A model generated the notes under the pieces. That model did not search any database. It saw nothing but the letters and a program-made list of their open reading frames with translations, and was not told the origin of the DNA. Both the position numbers and the translations under genes were made by a program. Below are positions 10,539 to 22,710 of a DNA stretch of 64,000 nt, piece after piece. The stretch comes from an uncultured Poribacteria bacterium (GTDB taxonomy: Bacteria > Poribacteria > WGA-4E > WGA-3G), in contig OX638351.1 in NCBI GenBank assembly GCA_951813565.1, positions 3,744,001 through 3,808,000 of the forward strand, read 5' to 3'. The number at the start of each line of letters is the position of its first letter. The first letter of the stretch is position 1.

Positions 10539-12848
10539 ATGCAGTTTACATACTTTTGGCCAGCATGGGCAGTTATACTCGGTGTTATCATTGCGGTTTG
10601 CATCACATTATACGGGTATCTCAGAGTAGGCCAACCTTTACATCGTTTACGCCGTTATTCACTCATTGCCTTACGATTTTTAGCCGTTACGATTTTACTG
10701 TGTTGTCTATTAGCACCAGTAATTATAGAAAAGAAAGACGTTACCCCTACGCCCCATCTTTCCATATTAGTTGATACTTCCCGAAGTATGCAATTAGAAG
10801 ACAATTATCTTGGAAAAACCGATACCTCACGTATGAGTCAAGTGAAACAGCTACTGTCCAACGAATCAAGCCAATTTTTAGAAGCATTAAACAGTGAATA
10901 CAAAGTACATCTCTACCGTTTCGATTCAGTTCTCTACCAAGATGCAACCACTGTCGAAAATATTGAACCGAAAGGCACACTTACGGATATCGCCTCAGCT
11001 ATCCGTGAAACAGTGCAGGCGTGGAGAGGACAACCGAACGCAGGTATTGTGTTAATAACTGATGGAGCGCATAATACCTCAAGGTTTTCAGTAGAAGATA
11101 TCGCCGCTTTGAATACACCTGTTTATGCTATAGGTGTCGGTTCACCACAACCACCAAAAGATGTCCAGATACAAAACGTTGATGTTTTGCCTATTGCCTA
11201 CACGGGACATGAAACTGTCATTCGCGTAACTATAGCGCAGACAGGATATAAAACTGAATCAATTAGAGTGTCGCTCCGTGAATCCAATACCAATCGCCTC
11301 GTTGATGCTGCAATGCTTACTTTTCCTCAAGTGAGTGTAGAACAATCGGTTACTTTGAATGGACAACGTATCACGAAAGGCACACAACATATTGTTGAGC
11401 TAAAGCTGAAGCCTGAGACCGAAGGAAATTTTCAGTATAAGGTGGTCCTCCCTACGCTTGAAGGTGAACTGACGAATGCCAACAATGAAAAGACGTTTTC
11501 TATAAAAGTGGTAAAAGCAAAGCTCAATGTCTTTTATCTGGAAGGCAGACCCCGTTGGGAGTACGCCTTTCTCAAGCGCACCTTAGAACGCGACCCAAAT
11601 ATTGAAGCTACTTTTGCAGTTTTGACGAAAAAAGCACCTCCTGAATCAGTCCTCGCGCGTAACGATGGGTATTACCCACAGAACCTCAACACACAACTTT
11701 CGCGGTTTCCTGAAACACGCGAAGAACTCTTCAAATACGATGTGTTGATTTTAGGGGACTTATCTGCTGGGCACTTCACAACCGCGCAACAACAGGCGAT
11801 TGTTGACTTTGTGGAACAACGGGGAAAAGCAGTTATCTTTCTTCCTTCACACAACGGATTAGGCGTAAATGGATTTAGAAATACCGGACTTGCGAGCATA
11901 CTGCCTATTCTAATTCCAGCAAATGGATGTCAAGAACAAGAGAGAGAATTTTCACTTGACCTAACACAATCGGGCATGTTTCATCCAATGCTGCAACTTA
12001 CTGACGATATAGAACGCAATGCTGAAATCTGGCAGAACCTCCCTGCACTTTCCCGCCTTTTTCGCGGTTTTCAACTGAGAGCAGGCGCGACTACACTCAT
12101 CCAAAAACAAACTGGAGAGCCAATACTGATTTTTCAGCGGGTTGGACTCGGAAAAAGTCTTCTTTTCGTTACTGAAGGTGTATGGAATTGGGACTTTGGC
12201 GTAAACATTTTTAAAGACACAACTTATCAAACAGTATACCCCCGTTTTTGGGCACAAGTGCTGCGTTGGATGTCGCAGCAATCAGACGAAAATCGGATAT
12301 ATATTACAACCGCAGCACCGACTTATGCACAAGGCGAAACTGTTCAGATAAACGTTAGAGCATACGCTTATACCTTGCAGCCTCAAAATAATGCCGAAAT
12401 TCAGTTGTTTGTAACATCGCCAAGCGGTTCAACATTTCCGCTGAGAACGCGCACTGAGGCTACAGAAAACCAAACTGCTAATTCAGGCAACTATACAGCG
12501 CAATTGAAGGCAGAAGAAAAAGGAACTTACAAGATTCGTGCTGTTGGTCAAACAGGGAATATGCCTTTGGGAGAAGATGAAATTGAAATTCACGTCCAGC
12601 CACAACTCATAGAATTGGAAGCACCGCAATTGAATGAAACGCTACTCAAGGAACTCACAGAGCAGACCGGAGGTGCATATCTCACTATGGAGGACGCTCA
12701 CGCTCTTCCCGATAAGATTAACACTGTTCAAGATTCTGTCTTTGTTGATACTCAACGCGATTTATGGGCACATCCTCTCATTCTCATCGCTATTGTTGGA
12801 TTGTTAGGGACTGAATGGTTTATACGAAAACGCATTGGACTTGTATAA
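10539..12848 (+). CDS. Membrane protein with vWA and glutamine-amidotransferase-like domains
   Basis: N-terminal TMs, MIDAS DTSRSM and LITDG, YLEGRPRWEYAFL, C-terminal TM ending EWFIRKR. Confidence 0.8.
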   Translation: MQFTYFWPAWAVILGVIIAVCITLYGYLRVGQPLHRLRRYSLIALRFLAVTILLCCLLAPVIIEKKDVTPTPHLSILVDTSRSMQLEDNYLGKTDTSRMSQVKQLLSNESSQFLEALNSEYKVHLYRFDSVLYQDATTVENIEPKGTLTDIASAIRETVQAWRGQPNAGIVLITDGAHNTSRFSVEDIAALNTPVYAIGVGSPQPPKDVQIQNVDVLPIAYTGHETVIRVTIAQTGYKTESIRVSLRESNTNRLVDAAMLTFPQVSVEQSVTLNGQRITKGTQHIVELKLKPETEGNFQYKVVLPTLEGELTNANNEKTFSIKVVKAKLNVFYLEGRPRWEYAFLKRTLERDPNIEATFAVLTKKAPPESVLARNDGYYPQNLNTQLSRFPETREELFKYDVLILGDLSAGHFTTAQQQAIVDFVEQRGKAVIFLPSHNGLGVNGFRNTGLASILPILIPANGCQEQEREFSLDLTQSGMFHPMLQLTDDIERNAEIWQNLPALSRLFRGFQLRAGATTLIQKQTGEPILIFQRVGLGKSLLFVTEGVWNWDFGVNIFKDTTYQTVYPRFWAQVLRWMSQQSDENRIYITTAAPTYAQGETVQINVRAYAYTLQPQNNAEIQLFVTSPSGSTFPLRTRTEATENQTANSGNYTAQLKAEEKGTYKIRAVGQTGNMPLGEDEIEIHVQPQLIELEAPQLNETLLKELTEQTGGAYLTMEDAHALPDKINTVQDSVFVDTQRDLWAHPLILIAIVGLLGTEWFIRKRIGLV

Positions 12849-13042
12849 ATACTTTTTATTTGGATTGACGGTGTTTGTAGTCGCGCAATTTATTGCGTCT
12901 CTTACACTGGTAGAAAGGAAACTGTAGGTTGGGTAGAACATATGCGAAACCTATAGTATCAACTTAAGAAAAAAAATGCTGACTTATCTCTTGTGGGAGG
13001 GCTTTCTAAGCCCGATTTATTACCCAAGGTAGGCGCGTTTTG

Positions 13043-13157
13043 ATGAAGATTAATTTATTAATTCAGTAATTTTAGAGAAACTCCGATGCGGTTGGGAAAC
13101 CGCACCTACCGGGTTTGGAAAAAATTAGAATTACCGAAATATTTTCTTAAGCTTCAT
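13043..13157. repeat. MITE-like element with IRs and an internal REP hairpin
   Basis: ATGAAGATTAA...AATTCAGTAATT / AATTACCGAA...TTAAGCTTCAT; related copy at 59578-59692 and one end near 39635. Confidence 0.7.
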
Positions 13158-13318
13158 TCAGTTTGCGTTCTATGGATGCACAAACTGCAAATTTGTGCTA
13201 CAAGGTAGCACATTAGGTTATAACACTATTTTCAATGATTACTTCTCATTACAGAACCGTGTTTGTAGTCGCGCAATTCATTGCGCCTCTTACATAATAA
13301 AATTGAAAGAATTAGGTT

Positions 13319-14026
13319 ATGTCTGTGTTTGGAAAAATTTGGAAACTATTGCAAATAGACTATTTAAAACTAACCCTTATTGTTTTTTGTTCTTTACTGT
13401 TTTGTGTTGTGGTTAGCACACAGGAAGCAGGTGAACTCTTTACGATTGCGCAAATCCAGTACGGCGGTGGTGGTGATTGGTACGGTGATCCCTCCACTAT
13501 CGGAAATTGGCTGCGTCTACTCCGGGAAAGGACAGAGATTGAAACTGCAGATGATCGGGTTATCTTAAAGTTAACTGACCATACACTTTATCAATATCCG
13601 ATGCTCTATCTCGTAGGACACGGAAATATTCGTCTTACAGAACAGGAGGTTTTAGCACTACGACAATATCTTACAAACGGAGGTTTTCTCTTTGTGAACG
13701 ATGATTATGGATTAGACAAAAGTTTCCGCCGTGAAATAAGTCGGGTATTTCCGAAGCAGGATTTGCAGCCGATTCCTAATTCACATCCAATATACCACTG
13801 TTTTTACGATCTACCGGGGTTACCTAAAATCCATGAACACGATTCAGAACCAGCACAAGGTTTTGGTATTTTTCACGATGGTCGAATGGTACTTTTTTAC
13901 GCTTATAGTGCTGATATTGGTGATGGGCTGGAAGACCCAAGAGTACATCCAGATGACACACCAGAAGTCCGAGAACTTGCCACAAAGATGGCTGTAAACA
14001 TAGCAGTGTATGTGCTTACGCAATAG
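13319..14026 (+). CDS. DUF4159-like protein
   Basis: YGGGGDWY, YPMLYLVGHG, LRQYLTNGGFLFVNDDYG. Confidence 0.85.
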   Translation: MSVFGKIWKLLQIDYLKLTLIVFCSLLFCVVVSTQEAGELFTIAQIQYGGGGDWYGDPSTIGNWLRLLRERTEIETADDRVILKLTDHTLYQYPMLYLVGHGNIRLTEQEVLALRQYLTNGGFLFVNDDYGLDKSFRREISRVFPKQDLQPIPNSHPIYHCFYDLPGLPKIHEHDSEPAQGFGIFHDGRMVLFYAYSADIGDGLEDPRVHPDDTPEVRELATKMAVNIAVYVLTQ

Positions 14027-14089
14027 ACGTTTTCTGTCCCTACAATTTGGAAACATTAATCTCCATAAGAGCGAACAAAGGAAATCAAA

Positions 14090-17000
14090 ATGCCAAATCA
14101 AAACATAAATCAGATTTACCAATCCATCATTGCCAAACTTAGTGCTGTGCGCCGAACTTGGCGATGGCTCATTTTATCCGAAAGTTTTCTCAAATGGGTC
14201 AGCATGCTTGCATTTGTAATGACAGCAGTGCTTCTCTGTTTTCAGCTCCCGCTCCACCATTTTTTGCGTAGTAGCATTGTTATGCTTTCTATAGGTGCTG
14301 CTATCTACATCACTATTCGACTGCTTATTCGCCCACTATTACGCAAATTACCTCATTCGACGGTGGCCGCATATCTTGAGAAAACGTATCCAACTATCCA
14401 AAATAGAATACTTAGCACTGTCCAGCTAAAACCGACACTGGAAGACAATCGATTGGGGTACGCACCAGAATTTGTTGAGCAGCTAATTTCGCAAACACAA
14501 CACGATATTGAGAAGATTGAATCGAAAAAGATTTTTCAGAACGAATTCCTAAAAATAAAGCGGCATGCAGGGATAGCTGTAATCGCTTTGGGAATCTTAA
14601 TGCTTACAAACTTTCTCTTACCTTCTGCATTGAAAGGGTTTACCCAAACATTCGAAACTTTACCAAAAACGCCAATGGAAGGGTTTACAGCGCAGATAGA
14701 AGAGGTCCGCCCCGGGAACATTCAAATTAAGCGAGCTGAAGATGTTACCGTCACCGCAAAAGTCAGTGGGCATCTTGATGCCCCTGTTCATGTTTATTAT
14801 CGTCTGGCAAATGAAAATGTAAACGTGCCAGAACCTTCAAATACAGACATCAATACCCAAAAAGATGAAAATCAATTACCTCATCTGTCGGATAGTGAAA
14901 CATGGCAATCTTTGCTGATGAATCGGGAACCCACTGATATTCTGTATAACGCGACTATTGAAAACATTGACCGATCGCTGCAATACTATGTTTCAACTAA
15001 AGACATAGCATCTGAGCAATATCAGATTGCGGTCCGCCATGAACCGATTGTCAAAACCTTTCAACTCCAACTGAACTATCCTGCATACACACAACTGCCT
15101 TCCCAAACGCTTGAAGCGAATACGGGTAATACCGAAGTTCTCTATGGAACAGAAGTCGTCCTTACAGGAGAAAGCAATAAGCCGCTTACAGAAGCACATC
15201 TGGTTTTTGAAGAGGCTGATCTCATCAAGCTTAGCATCGAAGAGTCAACCGAAATAAAAGGGAGTTTTATAGCAAAGCAAGCAGGAAAATACCACATTCA
15301 AATTCAAGATACAGATGGTTTGACAAACACCGATCCGCTCACATATACGCTCAATGTTTTCAAAGATACTGCCCCCCAAGTAGAGATTATTGAACCCGGC
15401 AAAGACCTTGTTTTAGATAATGATATGCTCGTGAAACTCAAAGTTGAAGCAACTGATGATTACGGTATTCAGGCACTTCAATTGGTACATCGCATTCAAA
15501 AAGAGAATACCGATGACATTACTGTTACGCTAAAGCAAGTTCCCACATCCACTGCACCACCACAAACATCGCATTTTCTCACATATACTTGGGATATTGA
15601 CCCACTCGGGCTATTTCCGGGTGAAGTGCTCTCTTACTATGTACAGGCACTTGATATTGACGATGTTTCTGGTCCCAACATCGGTAAATCGCGCACGTTT
15701 ACGCTTCGTTTTCCGACACTTGACGAATTATATGATGAACTTGCTGCTGAACAGGAAACTGAACAACTCAGTCTTGATGAATTATTTGACGAACAGACGG
15801 AAGCTACTGGAATAGTTGACGAACTTCTGGATAAAATCCGAAAGTTCAGAGAATTGTCACTCTCAGACGAGAAACTGATGCAGCAGGTTGTTGAATCGCA
15901 AAAGGAGATTGAGCGGAAGGCAAACGAACTCATCGCAGAAATGGAACAGACAGCGTCTGAAATGGAGAAAAACCAACTTTTTGAACCTGAAACGATACAA
16001 AAATATCAAGAACTCCAAGAGTTGATGAAGGAAGCACTATCTGAAGAACATCAGGAACTCTTGAAAAAATTGAGTGAGGCATTAGCAAAACAACAATTAT
16101 CTGAACAAGAAAACGCAATGACTGAAGCCAATTTTAATCAGGAACAGTTTCAACAACAACTTGAACGGATGAAATCGCTCTATGAACAGCTTATTATGCA
16201 ACAGAAACTTGAAGCAGCTGCAAAACAGGCGCAAGAACTCGCGGAACAGCAAAAGCAGCTGATGGATTCATTAGATACATCTGTGCCAGAAAAAACAGCA
16301 GACTCATCAAAATCGGAGTTGAATGATGCTGCACAAAAGGAAGATCGGATTAAGCAAGAATCTGACAAACTTAGCGATAAATTGGATACACTCGGCAATG
16401 AAATGTCTGAAATGGCAAAATCCCAAGAAAATGCTGCACCACAAATCCAGCAAGTTGCTGATGAGGTAAAGCGGCTAAATCAATATGCACAGGATCAGAA
16501 ACTTTCTGAAAATCTGCAAGATACAAGCGAAAGTTTGCGGGATGCCCAGAAACAAGATGCGCAGCAAACCGGTAGACAAGCGGAACAAACCATGACAGAA
16601 TTGGCACAGGGGTTAGATAATGCTTTGGAATTTATGGAAGGCGCAAATTCCAACCAAGCATTAACCGCAATGCAGGAAGCAGTTAAAAGTGGTCTCTATC
16701 TTTCTCACCTTCATGAAAAAGTCATCAATCAAACGAACGAACTCATAATCACAAACCTGGAGGATTATATTGAGAGTGAAATTCATCAGCTGCAACAGCT
16801 CGCCGCAGATGAAATCAGTGCCGCCAAAGGTATAGCGCAGCTTGCAGATAAACTTTGGGAACTTGGAAAACAGCAGATGGAGATTGATCCGAGGATAGTA
16901 TGGAGGCTAAATGCTTCCAGCGATGCGCTGAACCGTGCCGCACGCGCACTGGAAGATAGACAGACGAGTCTTGCGCTCCCTATTCAAAGAGGTGGTCTCG

Positions 17001-17635
17001 CTGACATCAATCAAGCAGTTTTTGACTTACTTAACGCTATGGCGCAAATGAATCAACAGATGGGGGCAGGCGGACTACAAGATATGCTGGAACAACTACA
17101 ACAACTCGCGCAAAGTCAAGAACAGCTCAATGAAATGGCACAAAACCTCAGTCAGCAGATGCGAGAACGTGGACAAACACCCAGCTTACAGCAAAGACTT
17201 GAAAGGATTGCTGGCCAACAACAACTTATCCGTGAGGCAACAGAAAGGCTGGCAGAAATCGCTGAAAACGCTGCGGAGATACTTGGAAGCCTAAAGGATG
17301 TTGCTGAAGAGATGGCGGAAGTCGAGAAAAAGCTTGGACAAGGCACACTCGATGACCAAGTTATTGACCAACAGCAACGTATTCTGACCAGAATGCTTGA
17401 CAGCTTAAAATCACTACAAAAACGCGATATCGGCAGGCAGCGGAAAGCACAAGTTGCCAAAAAACCTACTGCGACGCCACAAGAGGTACCGCCACTGCAT
17501 CCTGAACTATTAGAAATCGTCCGCAAACTTGAAACCACACCCAACGCCAAGGAATTGGAAAATATCCCATTTCAATACCGTGAACAACTTAGACAGTATT
17601 TCAAAGCACTCTCACAAAAGACAGTGGGTGAATAG
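14090..17635 (+). CDS. DUF4175-like membrane-anchored long coiled-coil protein
   Basis: Three N-terminal TMs, Ig-like region with ATDDYG, Q/E-rich coiled coil, C-terminal PFQYREQLRQYF. Confidence 0.75.
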   Translation: MPNQNINQIYQSIIAKLSAVRRTWRWLILSESFLKWVSMLAFVMTAVLLCFQLPLHHFLRSSIVMLSIGAAIYITIRLLIRPLLRKLPHSTVAAYLEKTYPTIQNRILSTVQLKPTLEDNRLGYAPEFVEQLISQTQHDIEKIESKKIFQNEFLKIKRHAGIAVIALGILMLTNFLLPSALKGFTQTFETLPKTPMEGFTAQIEEVRPGNIQIKRAEDVTVTAKVSGHLDAPVHVYYRLANENVNVPEPSNTDINTQKDENQLPHLSDSETWQSLLMNREPTDILYNATIENIDRSLQYYVSTKDIASEQYQIAVRHEPIVKTFQLQLNYPAYTQLPSQTLEANTGNTEVLYGTEVVLTGESNKPLTEAHLVFEEADLIKLSIEESTEIKGSFIAKQAGKYHIQIQDTDGLTNTDPLTYTLNVFKDTAPQVEIIEPGKDLVLDNDMLVKLKVEATDDYGIQALQLVHRIQKENTDDITVTLKQVPTSTAPPQTSHFLTYTWDIDPLGLFPGEVLSYYVQALDIDDVSGPNIGKSRTFTLRFPTLDELYDELAAEQETEQLSLDELFDEQTEATGIVDELLDKIRKFRELSLSDEKLMQQVVESQKEIERKANELIAEMEQTASEMEKNQLFEPETIQKYQELQELMKEALSEEHQELLKKLSEALAKQQLSEQENAMTEANFNQEQFQQQLERMKSLYEQLIMQQKLEAAAKQAQELAEQQKQLMDSLDTSVPEKTADSSKSELNDAAQKEDRIKQESDKLSDKLDTLGNEMSEMAKSQENAAPQIQQVADEVKRLNQYAQDQKLSENLQDTSESLRDAQKQDAQQTGRQAEQTMTELAQGLDNALEFMEGANSNQALTAMQEAVKSGLYLSHLHEKVINQTNELIITNLEDYIESEIHQLQQLAADEISAAKGIAQLADKLWELGKQQMEIDPRIVWRLNASSDALNRAARALEDRQTSLALPIQRGGLADINQAVFDLLNAMAQMNQQMGAGGLQDMLEQLQQLAQSQEQLNEMAQNLSQQMRERGQTPSLQQRLERIAGQQQLIREATERLAEIAENAAEILGSLKDVAEEMAEVEKKLGQGTLDDQVIDQQQRILTRMLDSLKSLQKRDIGRQRKAQVAKKPTATPQEVPPLHPELLEIVRKLETTPNAKELENIPFQYREQLRQYFKALSQKTVGE

Positions 17636-17660
17636 GTTAACACTATAATTGGAGTTCAAA

Positions 17661-19316
17661 ATGCATATTAAATTTAAAATTCCCTTAATCTTATTCCTAA
17701 TTCTCTTTATTGCTATTTCTGCCCGTGCTCTCACTGATACAGAAATAGACGCACTCATCGGTAGTATGTCAGTTGAAGAAAAGGTCGGACAGCTTCTTAT
17801 TTTTGGCATAGGCGGTAAACAAGTAGGGACGGTTGCCAAAGCACATATTGTCAAACGTTTTGTTGGCAGTGTTATTCTTTATGATCGGAACGTCCAAGAC
17901 CCCGCACAGGTGGCAGCGTTAACGTTTGCACTCCAAAAAACTGCTCAAGAAACACCCAACGCTATTCCGTTGTTCATTGCAATTGACCAAGAAGGTGGCA
18001 CTGTCGCGCGGTTACGTAAGGGTGCTACAGTTTTACCCGGTAACCTTGCTTTAGGTGCTACACGATCTGTGGCATTGGCAGAAAAAGCGGGGGAACTCAC
18101 TGCTATTGAATTAGCAACTGTCGGCATTAACCTAAACTTTGCCCCCGTTATGGACGTTAATACCAATCCACACAATCCGGTTATAGGGGTTCGCGCCTAT
18201 GGAGAATCTCGAGACCTCGTCTCGCAACTTGGAACTGCTTACATCCGTGGATTGCAGCGATACGGTGTGCTTGCTACAGCCAAACACTTCCCCGGACACG
18301 GCGATACCAATGTCGATTCGCACAAAAAATTACCTATTGTTACACATAATAAAAAGCGGATCAATACCATTGAATTGGCACCTTTTCACGCTGCAATTAA
18401 AGCAGATGTAGCCGCTATTATGTCAGCACATATCCTCTATCCAGTACTCGACCGAGAGATGCCAGCAACGCTTTCATACCCAATACTCACGAGACTCCTC
18501 CGCCAACAGTTCGGTTTCGACGGACTTATTATCACAGATGATTTAGAAATGAAAGCGATTGATGACCAATACGAAACAGGCAACGCTGCTGTCTTAGCGA
18601 TTCAAGCGGGTGCTGATATGGTTATGGTTCCGTGGACTCTAAAAAAGCAGCAACGCGTTTATAACGCACTCCGCCAAGCTGTGCACCGCCGAGACATCAC
18701 TGAAAGACGACTCAACAACTCCGTGCGACGTATCTTAAAAAGCAAAGATGCTTGCGGTGCTTTTGATAAACCGTTAGTCCCTATAGAAAATCCAAATGCT
18801 ATAAACTCGCCTCTTGCCGTTGTGGGAAGCAGACAACACAGAGAAATCGCTCAAACTATCGCAACACAGGCGATAACCCTCGTCAAAAACACAGGCGGTA
18901 TACTCCCTTTGAGCCAAGAACCACAAGAACCTGTTTTAGTCATTAGTCCGGCACGTGAATTTTCTAACACTTTCCTCAAGGCACATACGGATATTACCCA
19001 CATAAACCCTGTTTTAATTCCCGCGCAATTGAACGCGAAGCAGTTAGCACCGGTACTGTTGCTATCTAAACCCTCGCTTATCGTAGCAGGAATTGTCAAC
19101 GCGCAGCAAGCCAACCTTATTCACGAATTGAGCCAAAAAACCGATATCCCGATCATCGTTATTTCGCTTAAATCGCCCTATCTACTTGGCAAATGCCCCG
19201 ATGTCGCCTGTGCTATCGCTGCATACGATGGCAACTACTTTTCTGTTGCTGCTGCTGTGGATGTGTTGTTAGGTAAAAGACAAGCAACAGGAAAATTGCC
19301 AGTTACAATTCCGTAA
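17661..19316 (+). CDS. nagZ: GH3 beta-N-acetylhexosaminidase
   Basis: IDQEGG, KHFPGHGDTNVDSH, ITDDLEM motifs; signal peptide. Confidence 0.85.
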   Translation: MHIKFKIPLILFLILFIAISARALTDTEIDALIGSMSVEEKVGQLLIFGIGGKQVGTVAKAHIVKRFVGSVILYDRNVQDPAQVAALTFALQKTAQETPNAIPLFIAIDQEGGTVARLRKGATVLPGNLALGATRSVALAEKAGELTAIELATVGINLNFAPVMDVNTNPHNPVIGVRAYGESRDLVSQLGTAYIRGLQRYGVLATAKHFPGHGDTNVDSHKKLPIVTHNKKRINTIELAPFHAAIKADVAAIMSAHILYPVLDREMPATLSYPILTRLLRQQFGFDGLIITDDLEMKAIDDQYETGNAAVLAIQAGADMVMVPWTLKKQQRVYNALRQAVHRRDITERRLNNSVRRILKSKDACGAFDKPLVPIENPNAINSPLAVVGSRQHREIAQTIATQAITLVKNTGGILPLSQEPQEPVLVISPAREFSNTFLKAHTDITHINPVLIPAQLNAKQLAPVLLLSKPSLIVAGIVNAQQANLIHELSQKTDIPIIVISLKSPYLLGKCPDVACAIAAYDGNYFSVAAAVDVLLGKRQATGKLPVTIP

Positions 19317-19428
19317 AGCCAATTCGAGATACATCTTTTTGCAGGATATATTACCAATAAGACGCATCGAATATTGTAAAATCCAATAAAATCCCAATAT
19401 GTTTCCAATAACCCGCCACATATTCTAT

Positions 19429-19457
19429 TTGATTCACACAAAAAAGTATCGTATAAT
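19429..19457 (+). promoter_or_regulatory. Sigma70-type promoter driving the putative ncRNA
   Basis: TTGATT-N17-TATAAT. Confidence 0.7.
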
Positions 19458-19463
19458 TAACAC

Positions 19464-20331
19464 GTGTATAAGAATGCAACGCCCAATACGGCTACGCGAG
19501 CGTTCGATACTCTAAGAGGTGGTGAGGTTCCCTGAAAAGCGACCACACGGGAACACAACTTTTACAACCACAACAGTCGCTCGAAATCTCGATGGTGAGC
19601 CGTGGGCAGTCTCTTTGGATCCGCGACACCAAACGGAGACGGAACAACACCAACACGGAAAAAGATCGCGTCCATACTCAAGGAGTCGTGGGGAGTTTTC
19701 CAATGCCGAACGACACCAAATGGAAACTCAAATATGTCCGAAACGTCAATCTCAAATTGTTGGAGGGGTTTATAACCCGACAGCATCCTACTTTTGTGGG
19801 AGCGGTTTGTAACCCGATAATATCCCACATCTATTGTGGAAGGGGTTTGTAACCCGATAATATCCCACATCTATTGTGGGAGCGGTTTGTAACCCGATAA
19901 TATCCTACATCTATTGTGGGAGGGGTTTTCAACCCCGATAATATCCTACATCTATTGTGGGAGGGGTTTATAACCCCGATATATGAGATACGTTCTACAT
20001 ACCCACAGGAACATGTCGTTTAAAATCTCACTGGAGTTGCGGAGGTTCAACTGACACTAACGGCCTCAGAAACCGAACCAACCTGATCATAGTATCAAGT
20101 TGACACGTTGTCTCATGGCGCGCTTCACACCCGTGCTGGGAGCAGCCCAATGTCTACTTGAAATATGATGTCTTCCGTAGAAAAGGACCGTTAAAATCTC
20201 AAAGAGTCGTGGCGTTTCTTGAGACACCGCAGCATCTCAAAAACGAACCATCCACGTCAATTGCTGCGAACTCCCAGTCCGTAAAGCTGGAACTCGTGAA
20301 GCTGACTTTGGGCTTTGCATTCCGTTTTTTT
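19464..20331 (+). ncRNA. Putative large structured ncRNA with five repeated pseudoknot modules
   Basis: Promoter upstream; 5' GAATGCAACGCCCAA (19472-19486) pairs with 3' TTGGGCTTTGCATTC (20308-20322), followed by T7; five modules with conserved pairing but different sequences. Confidence 0.75.
19757..19980. repeat. Tandem array of ~40-bp REP-derived units (6 cores)
   Basis: TTGTGGGAGGGGTTTGTAACCCGATAATATCCCACATCTA-like units at 19757, 19794, 19834, 19874, 19914, 19955. Confidence 0.9.
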
Positions 20332-20336
20332 GCGCC

Positions 20337-20548
20337 GATTGCTGCCTTATCTTTCACATTTGTAGGGCGTGGTCTCTGTGCCCCGCTGATTGCTGCCTTA
20401 TCTTTCACATTTGTAGGGCGTGGTCTCTGTGCCCCGCTGATTGCTGCCTTATCTTTCACATTTGTAGGGCGTGGTCTCTGTGCCCCGCCGATTGCTGCCT
20501 TATCTTTCACATTTGTAGGGTGGGGTCTCTGTGCCCCGCTGATTGCTG
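20337..20548. repeat. Tandem array of 51-bp units (4 copies plus a partial)
   Basis: GATTGCTGCCTTATCTTTCACATTTGTAGGGCGTGGTCTCTGTGCCCCGCT at 20337, 20388, 20439, 20490. Confidence 0.95.
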
Positions 20549-20722
20549 ATATGTGCGTAGGTATAAAACTGGGTCAAACCCAACAGGAACAAAAAAACAC
20601 GAAAACACGTCCCATTCCTTATGCTGCTTGTCATTAGCACGTCCATGGGACGTAACAAACGTCCTACTAAACACGCAATAATTACATTGCTATTTTTTGG
20701 TGTTTATGTTAAAATAAATTGC

Positions 20723-20962
20723 ATGGAAAGAAAAGATTTACAGAAGAATAAATCAGAAATGCAAAACGAACTTTTACCCGAATATGATTTAAAAAAGTTA
20801 CGGACCCGAGGGGTAGGTCCTGGGCGCAAATCTTTTGCTGGTAAACCTATAATCAAATTAGAACCTGACGTTGCTGAAGTATTTCCAGATACTGCGGCTG
20901 TAAACGAAGCACTACGATTTCTGATTCGCGTGACAAAAGAAAACAACGCAGCAACGAAATAA
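20723..20962 (+). CDS. Small BrnA-like antitoxin, orphan
   Basis: ELLPEYD...LEPDVAEVFPDTAAVNEALRFL pattern, typical of small antitoxins paired with BrnT-like toxins. Confidence 0.6.
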   Translation: MERKDLQKNKSEMQNELLPEYDLKKLRTRGVGPGRKSFAGKPIIKLEPDVAEVFPDTAAVNEALRFLIRVTKENNAATK

Positions 20963-20984
20963 AATATAACTGTAGGGGAGCAGT

Positions 20985-21803
20985 ATGGGACAAAAAACAC
21001 GACATCTTCTCGGACTTTCAGGAGGAAAAGACAGCTCAGCACTTGCCGTTTACATGCGCGACAGAGTACCAGAGATGGAATACTTTTTTACTGATACCGG
21101 TAAAGAATTGCCAGAGACTTACGAGTTTTTGGACCGCCTTGAAGCATTCCTCGGCAAACCGATCGCACGTCTCAACGTGGAACGCGATTTTGACCATTGG
21201 TTGACGCTGCACGGTGGATTGCTGCCATCGTCTCAAGTCCGTTGGGGCACCATCAAACTGAAAATAAAACCTTTTGAGGCATACGTCGGTGAAGATAAAG
21301 CGTTCCACTACATCGGTATCCGTGCTGACGAAGATCGTGTCGGCTACAAACCGCTGAAAACGACATCCCACCAAAACATTCTCCCCAAATATCCATTCAA
21401 AGAGGATGGCATCACCAAAGAGGACGTTTTCCGCATCCTTGAGGAGAGCGGGCTTGGTTTGCCCGACTATTACAAGTGGCGCACGCGTTCTGGGTGTTAT
21501 TTCTGCTTTTTCCAACGCAAATCCGAATGGGTGGGACTCTTAGAGCAACACCCCGACCTTTTTGAACTTGCCAAAGAGTACGAGAAGTTTAATTCGGAAA
21601 CAGGTGAACGATTCACGTGGAGTCAGGGTAAAAGTTTAGAGGAGTTAGCAGATCCAGAACGGATAGCGCAAATCAAGGTAAATACTGAAAAGGCGAAGGC
21701 ATCTAAGAAAAAGGAAAAACCGAATCGCCGCCTGATAGAGATATTAACCGACGTTCACGATGATGAGGATGACGAGGAACCTTGTCTGATTTGCCATAAA
21801 TGA
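20985..21803 (+). CDS. PAPS-reductase-family protein (SspD/DndC-like)
   Basis: PP-loop LSGGKDS, FTDTGKELPETY, GIRADE, RSGCYFCFFQ, C-terminal CLICHK. Confidence 0.8.
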   Translation: MGQKTRHLLGLSGGKDSSALAVYMRDRVPEMEYFFTDTGKELPETYEFLDRLEAFLGKPIARLNVERDFDHWLTLHGGLLPSSQVRWGTIKLKIKPFEAYVGEDKAFHYIGIRADEDRVGYKPLKTTSHQNILPKYPFKEDGITKEDVFRILEESGLGLPDYYKWRTRSGCYFCFFQRKSEWVGLLEQHPDLFELAKEYEKFNSETGERFTWSQGKSLEELADPERIAQIKVNTEKAKASKKKEKPNRRLIEILTDVHDDEDDEEPCLICHK

Positions 21804-21819
21804 TATTGTGGAAGTTCCA

Positions 21820-22710
21820 ATGGACAAAGAACAAATTCTTGAGAAATTTAACACCTTGCGTCAGTGGGGCAATAAAGGGGAGAGAGCACCACACAAACCC
21901 TTGTTAGTGCTTTACGCCATTGGCAAATTACTACGCGGTGAAGATAGACTTATTTCATACAAGGACGATATTGAGGAGAATCTAAAAAGTTTATTGAGAG
22001 AGTTCGGTCCGAGGCGTAATTCCTATTATGCACATTTCCCTTTTTGGCGATTGCAGAACGATGGAATCTGGGAAGTCACCGATAGCGAAAAAGTAGGTCT
22101 AACAGACAGTAAGGATGCTTACGTAACTGATCTGAGGAACTACAACGTTGCGGGTGGTTTTCATGAGACTATCTCCAAACAACTCCAAAACGATTCTGAA
22201 CTCACGGTTGATATTATTCACAGTCTTTTAGATGCTCATTTCCCCGCATCATTCCATGAGGATATCCTACAGGCAGTTGATATTGAACTGCCACTCCAAG
22301 CGTTTGAGACGAGAACGCGTCCATCCAATTTTCGTATAAACATTCTCAGAGCTTATGAATATAGGTGTGCAATTTGTGGTTTTGATGTAAAATTGGGTGA
22401 TTCGCCTGTTGCGTTAGAAGCATCTCATATCAAATGGCAAAAGGCAGGTGGACCTGATGAAGCTGTGAATGGATTGGCTCTCTGCTCACTCCACCATAAG
22501 CTGTTTGACCGTGGGGCATTCACATTGTCCAAGCAACGACATATTTTGGTATCAGACGATGCACACGGAACAACAGGGTTTCAGGAGTGGCTTATGGACT
22601 TCCACATGAAAAGAATAAAATTGCCGCAAAGACGATCCTATTATCCAGAGGAAGAGTTTATCGGTTGGCACGTCAGAGAGGTGTTTAGAGGGGATTACCG
22701 GGAATTGTAA
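21820..22710 (+). CDS. SBD-HNH phosphorothioate-dependent restriction endonuclease-like protein
   Basis: RAPHKPLL and FPFWRLQNDGIWE (sulfur-binding-domain-like); CAICG...LEASHIKW...NGLALCSLHHKLFD HNH. Confidence 0.8.
   Translation: MDKEQILEKFNTLRQWGNKGERAPHKPLLVLYAIGKLLRGEDRLISYKDDIEENLKSLLREFGPRRNSYYAHFPFWRLQNDGIWEVTDSEKVGLTDSKDAYVTDLRNYNVAGGFHETISKQLQNDSELTVDIIHSLLDAHFPASFHEDILQAVDIELPLQAFETRTRPSNFRINILRAYEYRCAICGFDVKLGDSPVALEASHIKWQKAGGPDEAVNGLALCSLHHKLFDRGAFTLSKQRHILVSDDAHGTTGFQEWLMDFHMKRIKLPQRRSYYPEEEFIGWHVREVFRGDYREL

Follow-up and report, generated by a model that had tools for sequence, protein, structure and literature searches.

The stretch analysed here, referred to as the window, comprises 64,000 nucleotides (nt) of the genome of an uncultured Poribacteria bacterium (denoted G000; assembly GCA_951813565.1, contig OX638351.1, positions 3,744,001 to 3,808,000 of the forward strand). 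A stretch of 1.3 kb in which no credible protein is encoded separates the stop codon of a glycosyl hydrolase gene from a group of defence-type genes; here an initial annotation, made from the letters of the window only, had placed a large structured RNA built from repeated pseudoknot modules. Taking together its architecture, its mobility and its reading as a multivalent binder, we consider it rather probable that the plus strand from 19464 to 20331 encodes a large structured non-coding RNA (ncRNA) that is stable and transcribed independently. Its parts are listed in Table 1.

Table 1. Features of the RNA gene and of its immediate flanks in the window
Feature	Position	Strand	Remarks
CCAATA direct repeats, four copies	19354..19410	+	at 19354, 19383, 19394 and 19405, upstream of the -35 box
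Sigma-70-type promoter TTGATT-N17-TATAAT	19429..19457	+	10 of 12 consensus positions
RNA gene	19464..20331	+	homology, covariation, G-U pairs of the plus strand, no coding signal; predicted ends
Closing helix, three-part, 5′ strand	19472..19500	+	c1 19472-19486, c2 19489-19493, c3 19495-19500
Module M1	19509..19581	+	mini-hairpin CTC/GAG 19510-19518; outer stem 19519-19523/19567-19571; inner hairpin 19527-19532/19549-19554; pseudoknot 19538-19543/19576-19581
Module M2	19587..19670	+	mini-hairpin 19588-19599; outer stem 19600-19604/19654-19658; inner hairpin 19609-19618/19629-19640; pseudoknot 19622-19626/19666-19670
Module M3	19676..20020	+	outer stem 19688-19692/20002-20006; pseudoknot 19709-19714/20015-20020; split by the repeat insert
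Repeat insert in variable linker of M3	19756..19981		5.7 copies of a 40-nt REP-like dispersed unit
Module M4	20026..20193	+	outer stem 20038-20043/20174-20179; pseudoknot 20058-20063/20188-20193; internal arm of ~100 nt
Module M5	20197..20268	+	mini-hairpin 20198-20206; outer stem 20208-20212/20252-20256; inner hairpin 20219-20224/20235-20240; pseudoknot 20228-20234/20262-20268
3′ hairpin and 3′ strands of closing helix	20274..20322	+	hairpin CCAG/CTGG 20274-20290; closing-helix strands 20293-20322
T7 run	20325..20331	+	candidate terminator tail 3′ of the closing helix
51-nt tandem repeat, 4.2 copies	20333..20548		96% matches; directly 3′ of the RNA
CGTCC/GGACG repeat cluster	20590..20680		with palindrome CACGTCCATGGGACGT

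The predicted transcript of about 868 nt (about 640 nt once the repeat insert is subtracted) has its 5′ and 3′ ends joined by a closing helix of 26 base pairs (bp) in total. Segment c1 pairs with 20308-20322 at 14 of 15 positions, while c2 (CGGCT, with AGCTG at 20300-20304) and c3 (CGCGAG, with CTCGTG at 20293-20298) contain one G-U pair each. Within this helix, the modules follow a common plan, in which a 3-bp mini-hairpin is followed by an outer stem of 5-6 bp and an inner hairpin; the loop of the latter forms a pseudoknot with the 5-9 nt directly 3′ of the outer stem. Full complementarity is found in all five outer stems and all five loop-to-tail pseudoknots, with a single G-U pair in the outer stem of M4. 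All 11 long-range or pseudoknot helices of the initial annotation are present at their positions, as are the extra closing segments c2 and c3 with their G-U pairs. Modules measure about 80-95 nt, with a range of 74-100 nt and a mean column identity of 52% across 18 modules, and their loops contain the conserved motifs GCGAC, GCAGC or ACAGC. The unit of the M3 insert is a palindromic sequence resembling repetitive extragenic palindromes (REP), beginning ATTGTGGGAGGGGTTTGTAACCCGATAATATCC, which is dispersed across the genome with relatives at about 50 other places and is present here as an array of 5.7 copies within the RNA gene. The region has 50 non-self matches in G000, all of them within the insert; the RNA itself therefore occurs only once in this genome. 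At the same insertion site, other copies of the RNA carry different insertions or none.

The promoter proposed in the initial annotation is present immediately upstream. A promoter scan returned four promoter-like sites against 3.6 expected in shuffled sequences, so that the match by itself is no proof; it carries weight because the -10 box and the spacing are kept in all 18 aligned copies of the RNA (TATAAT in 16, TATACT in two). The -35 box is TTGACA in most of these copies. The CCAATA repeats before the promoter are possibly regulator sites or an UP-like element, and direct repeats occupy the same upstream place in other copies, being of the CAATA type in both genera that carry the RNA. In genome G087 (copies L173 and L201-L209), three CGACATCACAT repeats precede the -35 box and an extra hairpin, GCGTATCATAAAATACGC, separates the -10 box from the closing helix. 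At the 3′ end, the T7 run that had been annotated exists in the window but is not a feature of the family, since most aligned copies have T4 and L012/L017 have no T run.

The initial view that no protein is encoded agrees with the substitution and indel patterns of the homologues. Frames of 97-159 amino acids (aa) in the 1.3-kb stretch overlap tandem repeats, and the frame at 20158-20637, the one that was submitted to Pfam, gave no match. In a codon-phase test, variable columns were evenly distributed over the three phases (40, 45 and 45 of 61 each; 36, 38 and 34 of about 50 each). Gaps in the alignment run mostly over one (n = 315) or two (n = 130) nucleotides, compared to 43 gaps of three. 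The longest stop-free frames, of 53-130 aa, differ between copies, and a frame of 167 aa occurs only in L160, whose sequence contains a run of N. Judged by the lack of codon periodicity and of a conserved frame and by the predominance of 1- and 2-nt indels, the region is non-coding.

Distribution of the RNA and covariation of its helices

Of 24 genomes of the same genus, 7 gave BLAST matches to the region, at up to 17 places in one genome, as against none of 16 genomes from three other families of the order. A covariance model comprising the 5′ closing strand and module 1 (132 positions) was run over 151 genomes of the phylum. It matched 29 of them, all belonging to one family (f1) and to two of its genera, with 12 of 37 genomes in g1 and 16 of 57 in g9 (both counts without G000) and none of 51 in eight other families. 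Positive genomes gave between 1 and 18 matches. These searches show the putative RNA family to be confined to two genera of one Poribacteria family, in which it is patchy and often multi-copy. Viral contigs gave no match to a conserved 3′ motif, and none of three matches in metagenome contigs was confirmed by the covariance model; a motif pattern scan of genome contigs was too loose, most of its 120 stretches being due to chance.

Thirty-three full-length copies could be delimited, with lengths of 327-944 nt. Their ends are conserved, comprising the closing helix, M1 and M2 on the 5′ side and the last module, the 3′ hairpin and the closing helix on the 3′ side, and the middle is variable. The five modules of the initial annotation are correct for the copy in the window (859 nt), but the family as a whole has three to six: L020 has three (M1, M2 and M5) in 327 nt, copies of the L012, L156 and G005 type have four in about 500-650 nt, and six are found in L015 (944 nt), in the g9 type (about 847 nt) and in the G087 type (about 682 nt). 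In several modules the linker between inner hairpin and outer stem accommodates insertions of 100-300 nt, and one copy is broken by unrelated inserted DNA with a long open frame. Neither this range of module numbers nor the multi-copy occurrence in relatives had been part of the initial annotation, and the same applies to the mobilisation described below.

The proposed helices were examined in an alignment (A3) of 32 full-length copies with 94 modelled pairs, which belong to the closing helix, M1, M2, M5 and the 3′ hairpin and include three pseudoknots. Paired cells amount to 86.8%, compared to 32.5-38.9% when the partners are slid along the alignment. Changes on both sides of the pair occur in 27 of the 94 pairs, whereas shuffled alignments give a mean of 16.3 and none of 500 reaches 27; compensatory cells number 88 versus 36.0 in the shuffles. 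The two helices of the closing stem, the first of which is c1, are paired in 91.1% (15 pairs, 5 compensatory) and 87.7% (11 pairs, 3 compensatory) of cells. M1 shows swaps of U-A/C-G and G-C/A-U in its outer stem and of A-U/G-C and C-G/U-A in its pseudoknot, which is 99.0% paired. In M5, the outer stem is 98.7% paired, and compensatory changes are found in five of the six pairs of the inner hairpin and in three of the seven pairs of the pseudoknot. M2 has an outer stem paired in all cells and an almost invariant pseudoknot (96.9% paired), and the 3′ hairpin is 94.5% paired with no compensatory change.

An alignment restricted to the 5′ part (A1; 14 copies, 47 pairs) gave a similar picture, with 91.5% paired cells against 32-45% for slid partners and 8 compensatory pairs against 3.6 in shuffles (1 of 500), two of them in the outer stem and two in the pseudoknot of M1. 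For the second genus, an alignment covering M3, M4 and an extra module, M4b, was prepared (A4), in which 83.1% of cells are paired compared to 37-45% after sliding. The lineage versions of the M3 outer stem are still complementary (GTAGG/CCTAC, and GCGGG/CCCGT with a G-U pair), the M3 pseudoknot likewise changes its letters between lineages without losing complementarity, and the M4 pseudoknot reads TAACGG/CCGTTA in the window, ATCGG/CCGAT in L012, TGATGG/CCATCA in L162 and AACGGA/TCCGTT in L173. Covariation between modules of the same RNA was not counted, as MAFFT sets paralogous modules one column out of register. The substitution patterns support the predicted closing helix as well as M1, M2 and M5 with their pseudoknots. 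In addition, G-U pairs are abundant (for example, A3 columns 33/1265, 40/1260 and 1139/1209), which places the RNA on the plus strand. The stand-alone structured RNA proposed for this strand in the initial annotation is thereby backed by homology, covariation and G-U pairs.

Carriage by ISKra4-type elements

Near-identical copies of the RNA gene in genome G005 have about 1.4 kb in common, and the ends of this unit are inverted 21-bp repeats, GGGTGTGTAAAGTTTTTGGCA. The same terminal inverted repeat (TIR) bounds at least ten insertion sequence (IS) elements of 1.46 kb in G000 (C1:655209-656668 and at least nine other places), each with a 9-bp target duplication, and the transposase of these elements matches the NCBIfam ISKra4 model with 231 bits (cut-off 205). 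The TIR is present at 53 sites in G000 (at most two mismatches) and was found in 92 of the 101 family genomes, with up to about 330 occurrences per genome. It also forms a very abundant population of miniature inverted-repeat transposable elements (MITEs) in the family. Because the TIR is so widespread, the argument for mobility rests on target duplications and not on proximity.

After seven spurious anchors (wrong strand or off-target) had been set aside, both TIRs were found in the correct orientation at eight real RNA copies, which come from G005, G021, G122, G152 and G085 and represent both genera. Measured from the RNA start, the upstream TIR is 150-520 nt and the downstream TIR 540-1410 nt away, which gives units of 1046-1921 bp. 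Target duplications abut the TIRs in four of the eight copies: L026 (CAAGTCCAG, 9 nt), L217 (AACCCAATA, 9 nt), L165 (AAAACCGAA, 9 nt) and L019 (AAGGTTAC, 8 nt). Partial duplications of 7 nt are present in L021 and L218. The 1595-bp unit of L217 contains no transposase and no convincing open reading frame (ORF), its stop-to-stop frames being at most 112 aa long and overlapping the RNA. Downstream of the RNA in the G005 copies there is a frame of 128 aa, in which about half of the residues are changed, as judged by eye, at 88% DNA identity. The interior of the units has no similarity to the interior of the IS elements.

These units show that in at least four genomes the putative RNA is the only recognisable gene of a non-autonomous element of 1.0-1.9 kb with ISKra4-family TIRs and duplications. 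Units that are bounded by TIRs and flanked by duplications but have no transposase imply that the RNA gene spreads as transposon cargo, with the transposase supplied in trans. The predicted RNA gene is therefore found both as fixed loci and as a passenger of ISKra4-type elements. The window has no TIR match at up to three mismatches, and its copy has either lost the TIR ends or never had them.

The units in G005, G021, G122 and G152 are similar to MITEs and other non-autonomous IS derivatives in their 21-bp IS TIRs, duplications of 8-9 bp, lack of transposase and many copies. Unlike MITEs, they are as long as the parent IS (1.0-1.9 kb), and their interior is a promoter-driven RNA gene instead of a deletion remnant. 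The omega RNA of IscB/TnpB and the bridge RNA of IS110 are likewise structured RNAs encoded inside transposable elements, but the Poribacteria unit has no IscB, TnpB or IS110 recombinase, its DDE-type transposase is encoded elsewhere, and no variable guide-like segment was seen. We know of no other DDE-type non-autonomous transposon whose sole cargo is a large, modular pseudoknot-array RNA. As the structure of the RNA is under selection although its carrier is a transposon without a protein gene, the question arises whether the RNA helps the element or the element is a vehicle for an RNA useful to the host.

The former could be explained by pseudoknots that bind the ISKra4 transposase of autonomous copies, or a host factor on which transposition depends, and retain it at the element, favouring or tuning transposition; we regard this as unlikely. 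It would fit the position of the RNA as the only gene of units that have transposed, the conservation of its structure within selfish DNA, and the numbers of RNA matches (18 and 5) in the genomes richest in TIRs, G005 (about 330) and G021 (about 260). However, the RNA and the IS have no sequence relation or antisense complementarity of note (best match 11 nt, E 0.24), G087 has 11 copies of the RNA and no TIR match, and neither the window copy nor most single-copy loci have TIRs. To our knowledge, no DDE transposase uses an RNA partner. A related and similarly doubtful scenario is that the RNA captures the transposase or host factor where it is transcribed, by which the protein-less transposon would hitch-hike and compete for transposase supplied in trans.

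Several observations weigh against the reading as a mobile, structured and transcribed RNA gene. Transcription is predicted from the conserved promoter, and a search of sequencing runs for this sequence returned six entries, stored as contigs, none of which is recorded as RNA. The minimum free energy of the plus strand is no better than that of shuffled sequences (z of -0.85 and +0.29 for the two halves), and the minus strand (-1.63 and +0.64) is no worse than the plus strand. Unguided RNAalifold on the 5′ fragment finds the inner hairpins only, with a covariation term of -1.58 kcal/mol, and offers an alternative in which the 3′ strand of M1 pairs with the 5′ strand of M2. Such alternative outer-stem pairing is possible because all outer stems resemble GUGG/CCAC; covariation at columns 62/113 of A1 favours the modelled pairing, and alternative registers may form in the cell. 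A crude automatic test of 125 modules found an outer stem of at least 5 bp in 105 (77.7 expected) and a pseudoknot of at least 5 bp in 105 (69.8 expected), which is a modest excess. The M2 pseudoknot and the 3′ hairpin are invariant, never covary and are thus uninformative, and in A4, which holds two lineages only, the 9 compensatory pairs equal the 8.9 found in shuffles (325 of 500). Moreover, the shuffle controls overstate significance, because the copies are close kin of one family and partly recent duplicates. As for mobility, both TIRs are present in only 8 of about 44 real copies examined, two of these eight (L018 and L170) have no duplication, nor does L027, and the 11-copy genome G087 gave no TIR match at up to two mismatches. 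Many copies are truncated, as would be expected of decaying selfish DNA.

A dispersed MITE-like DNA repeat without RNA function, with structure that is incidental or acts at the DNA level, would account for the patchy, multi-copy distribution, the truncations, the TIRs with their target duplications, and a folding energy that does not exceed that of shuffles. If the RNA is not expressed, the finding shrinks to an odd MITE family. We nevertheless consider such a repeat quite improbable, as it is opposed by the compensatory changes in over a quarter of the A3 pairs, pseudoknots included, and by the consensus promoter at a fixed distance. In addition, wherever the plus strand has a G-U pair, the other strand or a DNA cruciform would have an A-C mismatch. 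The closing helix does not form the end of the transposon, because the TIRs lie 150-520 nt outside the structured part.

Known RNAs and possible roles

No match was obtained when the window was compared with the 4227 families of Rfam 15 at gathering thresholds. This set includes tmRNA, RNase P, 6S, signal recognition particle (SRP) RNA, GOLLD, ROOL, OLE, HEARO, raiA, MISL, ribozymes and riboswitches. At E ≤ 10, the sole match in 19300-20700 was to snR76, an artefact of 16.5 bits (cut-off 55) in the 51-nt repeat, and at E ≤ 1 nothing was found inside the RNA at seven homologous loci. The initial annotation, which had seen no tmRNA, RNase P, 6S or SRP signature and had named MISL as a class to be excluded, is in agreement with these searches. 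No published description of the RNA family was found, nor any precedent for an ISKra4-MITE or a pseudoknot-RNA transposon, in a search that did not cover the supplements of RNA-motif surveys. A motif called 'Poribacteria-1' was reportedly included in a motif survey of 2017; if the motif is in Rfam 15, it has no match here. To the extent searched, this large structured ncRNA family has not been described before.

With its long end-pairing helix around a series of pseudoknots, the RNA is similar to transfer-messenger RNA (tmRNA). It differs in having no tRNA-like domain or tag frame, ARAGORN detecting neither tRNA nor tmRNA in the window, and in its patchy occurrence at 1-18 copies, where tmRNA normally has a single functional gene. 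An ordinary tmRNA with the tag ADQELALAA is encoded 1.5 Mb away in G000 (C1:2195363-2195712). ARAGORN also reports a second, permuted tmRNA of 640 nt in this genome (C1:593527-594166, tag VGSDTPRRILQLA), which may be a false positive. A 6S RNA was rejected as well: RF00013 finds nothing in G000, and the RNA is unlike 6S in size and copy number. Mimicry of CRISPR repeats was likewise discarded, as none of the three CRISPR repeats of G000 resembles the module motif. The corresponding arrays, located by a k-mer spacing scan, lie near C1:1198127, C1:2830673 and C1:3992476 and contain about 48, 26 and 54 repeats, respectively.

Large bacterial RNAs with intricate structures are seldom found, and every new class so far has led to new biochemistry. 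Among the 'ornate' ncRNAs GOLLD, ROOL, OLE, raiA and HEARO, GOLLD and ROOL are associated with prophages and HEARO with IS elements. The Poribacteria RNA resembles this group in its size (500-900 nt), its intricate conserved structure, its narrow phylogenetic range and its association with mobile DNA. Unlike these RNAs, it has a variable number of paralogous pseudoknot modules instead of one fixed fold and is carried by a DDE-type (ISKra4) non-autonomous element without a protein gene. Higher-order particle assembly has been reported for other ornate RNAs, and the end-closed, multi-module RNA may also self-assemble into such a particle.

Tandem pseudoknot units behind one promoter, with A-rich junctions, are also characteristic of the type III antitoxins ToxI, CptI and TenpI. 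The RNA could accordingly be a precursor that is cut at A-rich junctions (UAAAAUCUC) into pseudoknot RNAs of about 85 nt, which would neutralise an endoribonuclease toxin in the manner of ToxI. A single-stranded junction containing AAAU, the cleavage motif of ToxN, is found at most module boundaries. However, the units are about twice as long as those of the antitoxins and divergent (74-100 nt, about 52% identical, versus near-identical repeats of 34-45 nt), the downstream genes differ, and no toxin gene follows the RNA in any copy. PF13958 (ToxN) finds nothing in G000, although its control also matched in no genome. Furthermore, the terminal closing helix, which the antitoxins lack, argues for an intact molecule. 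We therefore hold this role to be very unlikely.

An array of small-molecule aptamers or self-cleaving ribozymes could be suspected from the compact pseudoknots with highly conserved unpaired nucleotides, for example in the GCGAC/GCAGC loop and in the M1 linker UUUACAACC. To this we give hardly any credence, as no riboswitch or ribozyme model of Rfam matches at E = 10 in the region or at E = 1 in the homologues, there is no conserved downstream gene to regulate, and the loops differ between modules.

The modules vary freely in number and spacing while each keeps its own pairings and a similar loop, which suggests that they are independent and additive. On this basis, we tentatively propose that the RNA is a multivalent binder, either a sponge or a scaffold, whose partner is most likely a protein. 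The RNA would be transcribed from the conserved promoter, and its closing helix would shield the ends from exonucleases. One protein partner would meet the same pseudoknot surface on every module, and the dose would scale with module number and copy number. This arrangement recalls the sponges CsrB/RsmZ and CrcZ, which also consist of a variable number of a repeated structural unit and are encoded by stand-alone genes with their own promoters. The Poribacteria modules are long pseudoknots with GCGAC/GCAGC/ACAGC loops, in contrast to the short hairpins of those RNAs, which have CA motifs or the many GGA motifs by which CsrA is bound. We think that the RNA works like CsrB/RsmZ in the principle of repeated binding units, without being a member of that family. 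Its modularity, with three to six units in one closing helix and with gains, losses and insertions, provides a natural series for asking what one unit does. The RNA family is also one of few handles on the RNA biology of the Poribacteria, which are uncultured sponge symbionts.

Genomic surroundings

The gene upstream of the RNA (17649-19316) encodes a family-3 glycosyl hydrolase according to Pfam. It is preceded by a cluster of VWA-domain, DUF4159 and DUF4175 proteins at 10539-17635, which is possibly a Bat-like operon. Synteny with 13 relatives ends at the stop codon of the glycosyl hydrolase gene and is not resumed within 1.5 kb, so that no empty insertion site can be defined. Downstream, at 20723-22710, are an ORF of 79 aa, a PAPS-reductase-like protein (20985-21803) and a restriction endonuclease for phosphorothioated DNA (21808-22710; NF045808, 350 bits). 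The initial annotation had noted the position of the RNA directly before this defence-like island. A link to the island is not a feature of the family, as other copies of the RNA have unrelated neighbours and no conserved downstream gene, and the proximity to defence-type genes is read as a coincidence in a variable region.

The 51-nt tandem repeat begins with the motif TTGCTGCC, which follows the RNA in all copies of this genus, and a related single unit of 51 nt is located beside an RNA copy in G005. The CGTCC/GGACG cluster may belong to the same unit as the RNA. Clusters of a 6-mer, each with one perfect palindrome, are found 200-500 nt downstream of many copies (L170, L165, L155, L153, L019 and L018). 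The repeated motif differs by lineage, being CGTCC in the window and CGTCAC, CGTACC or CGTACA elsewhere, and the clusters resemble binding sites that change together with a DNA-binding protein. In G122, a sequence resembling a PyrR binding site (L162:2855-2993; 51.5 bits, cut-off 54) lies 500 nt downstream of an RNA copy.

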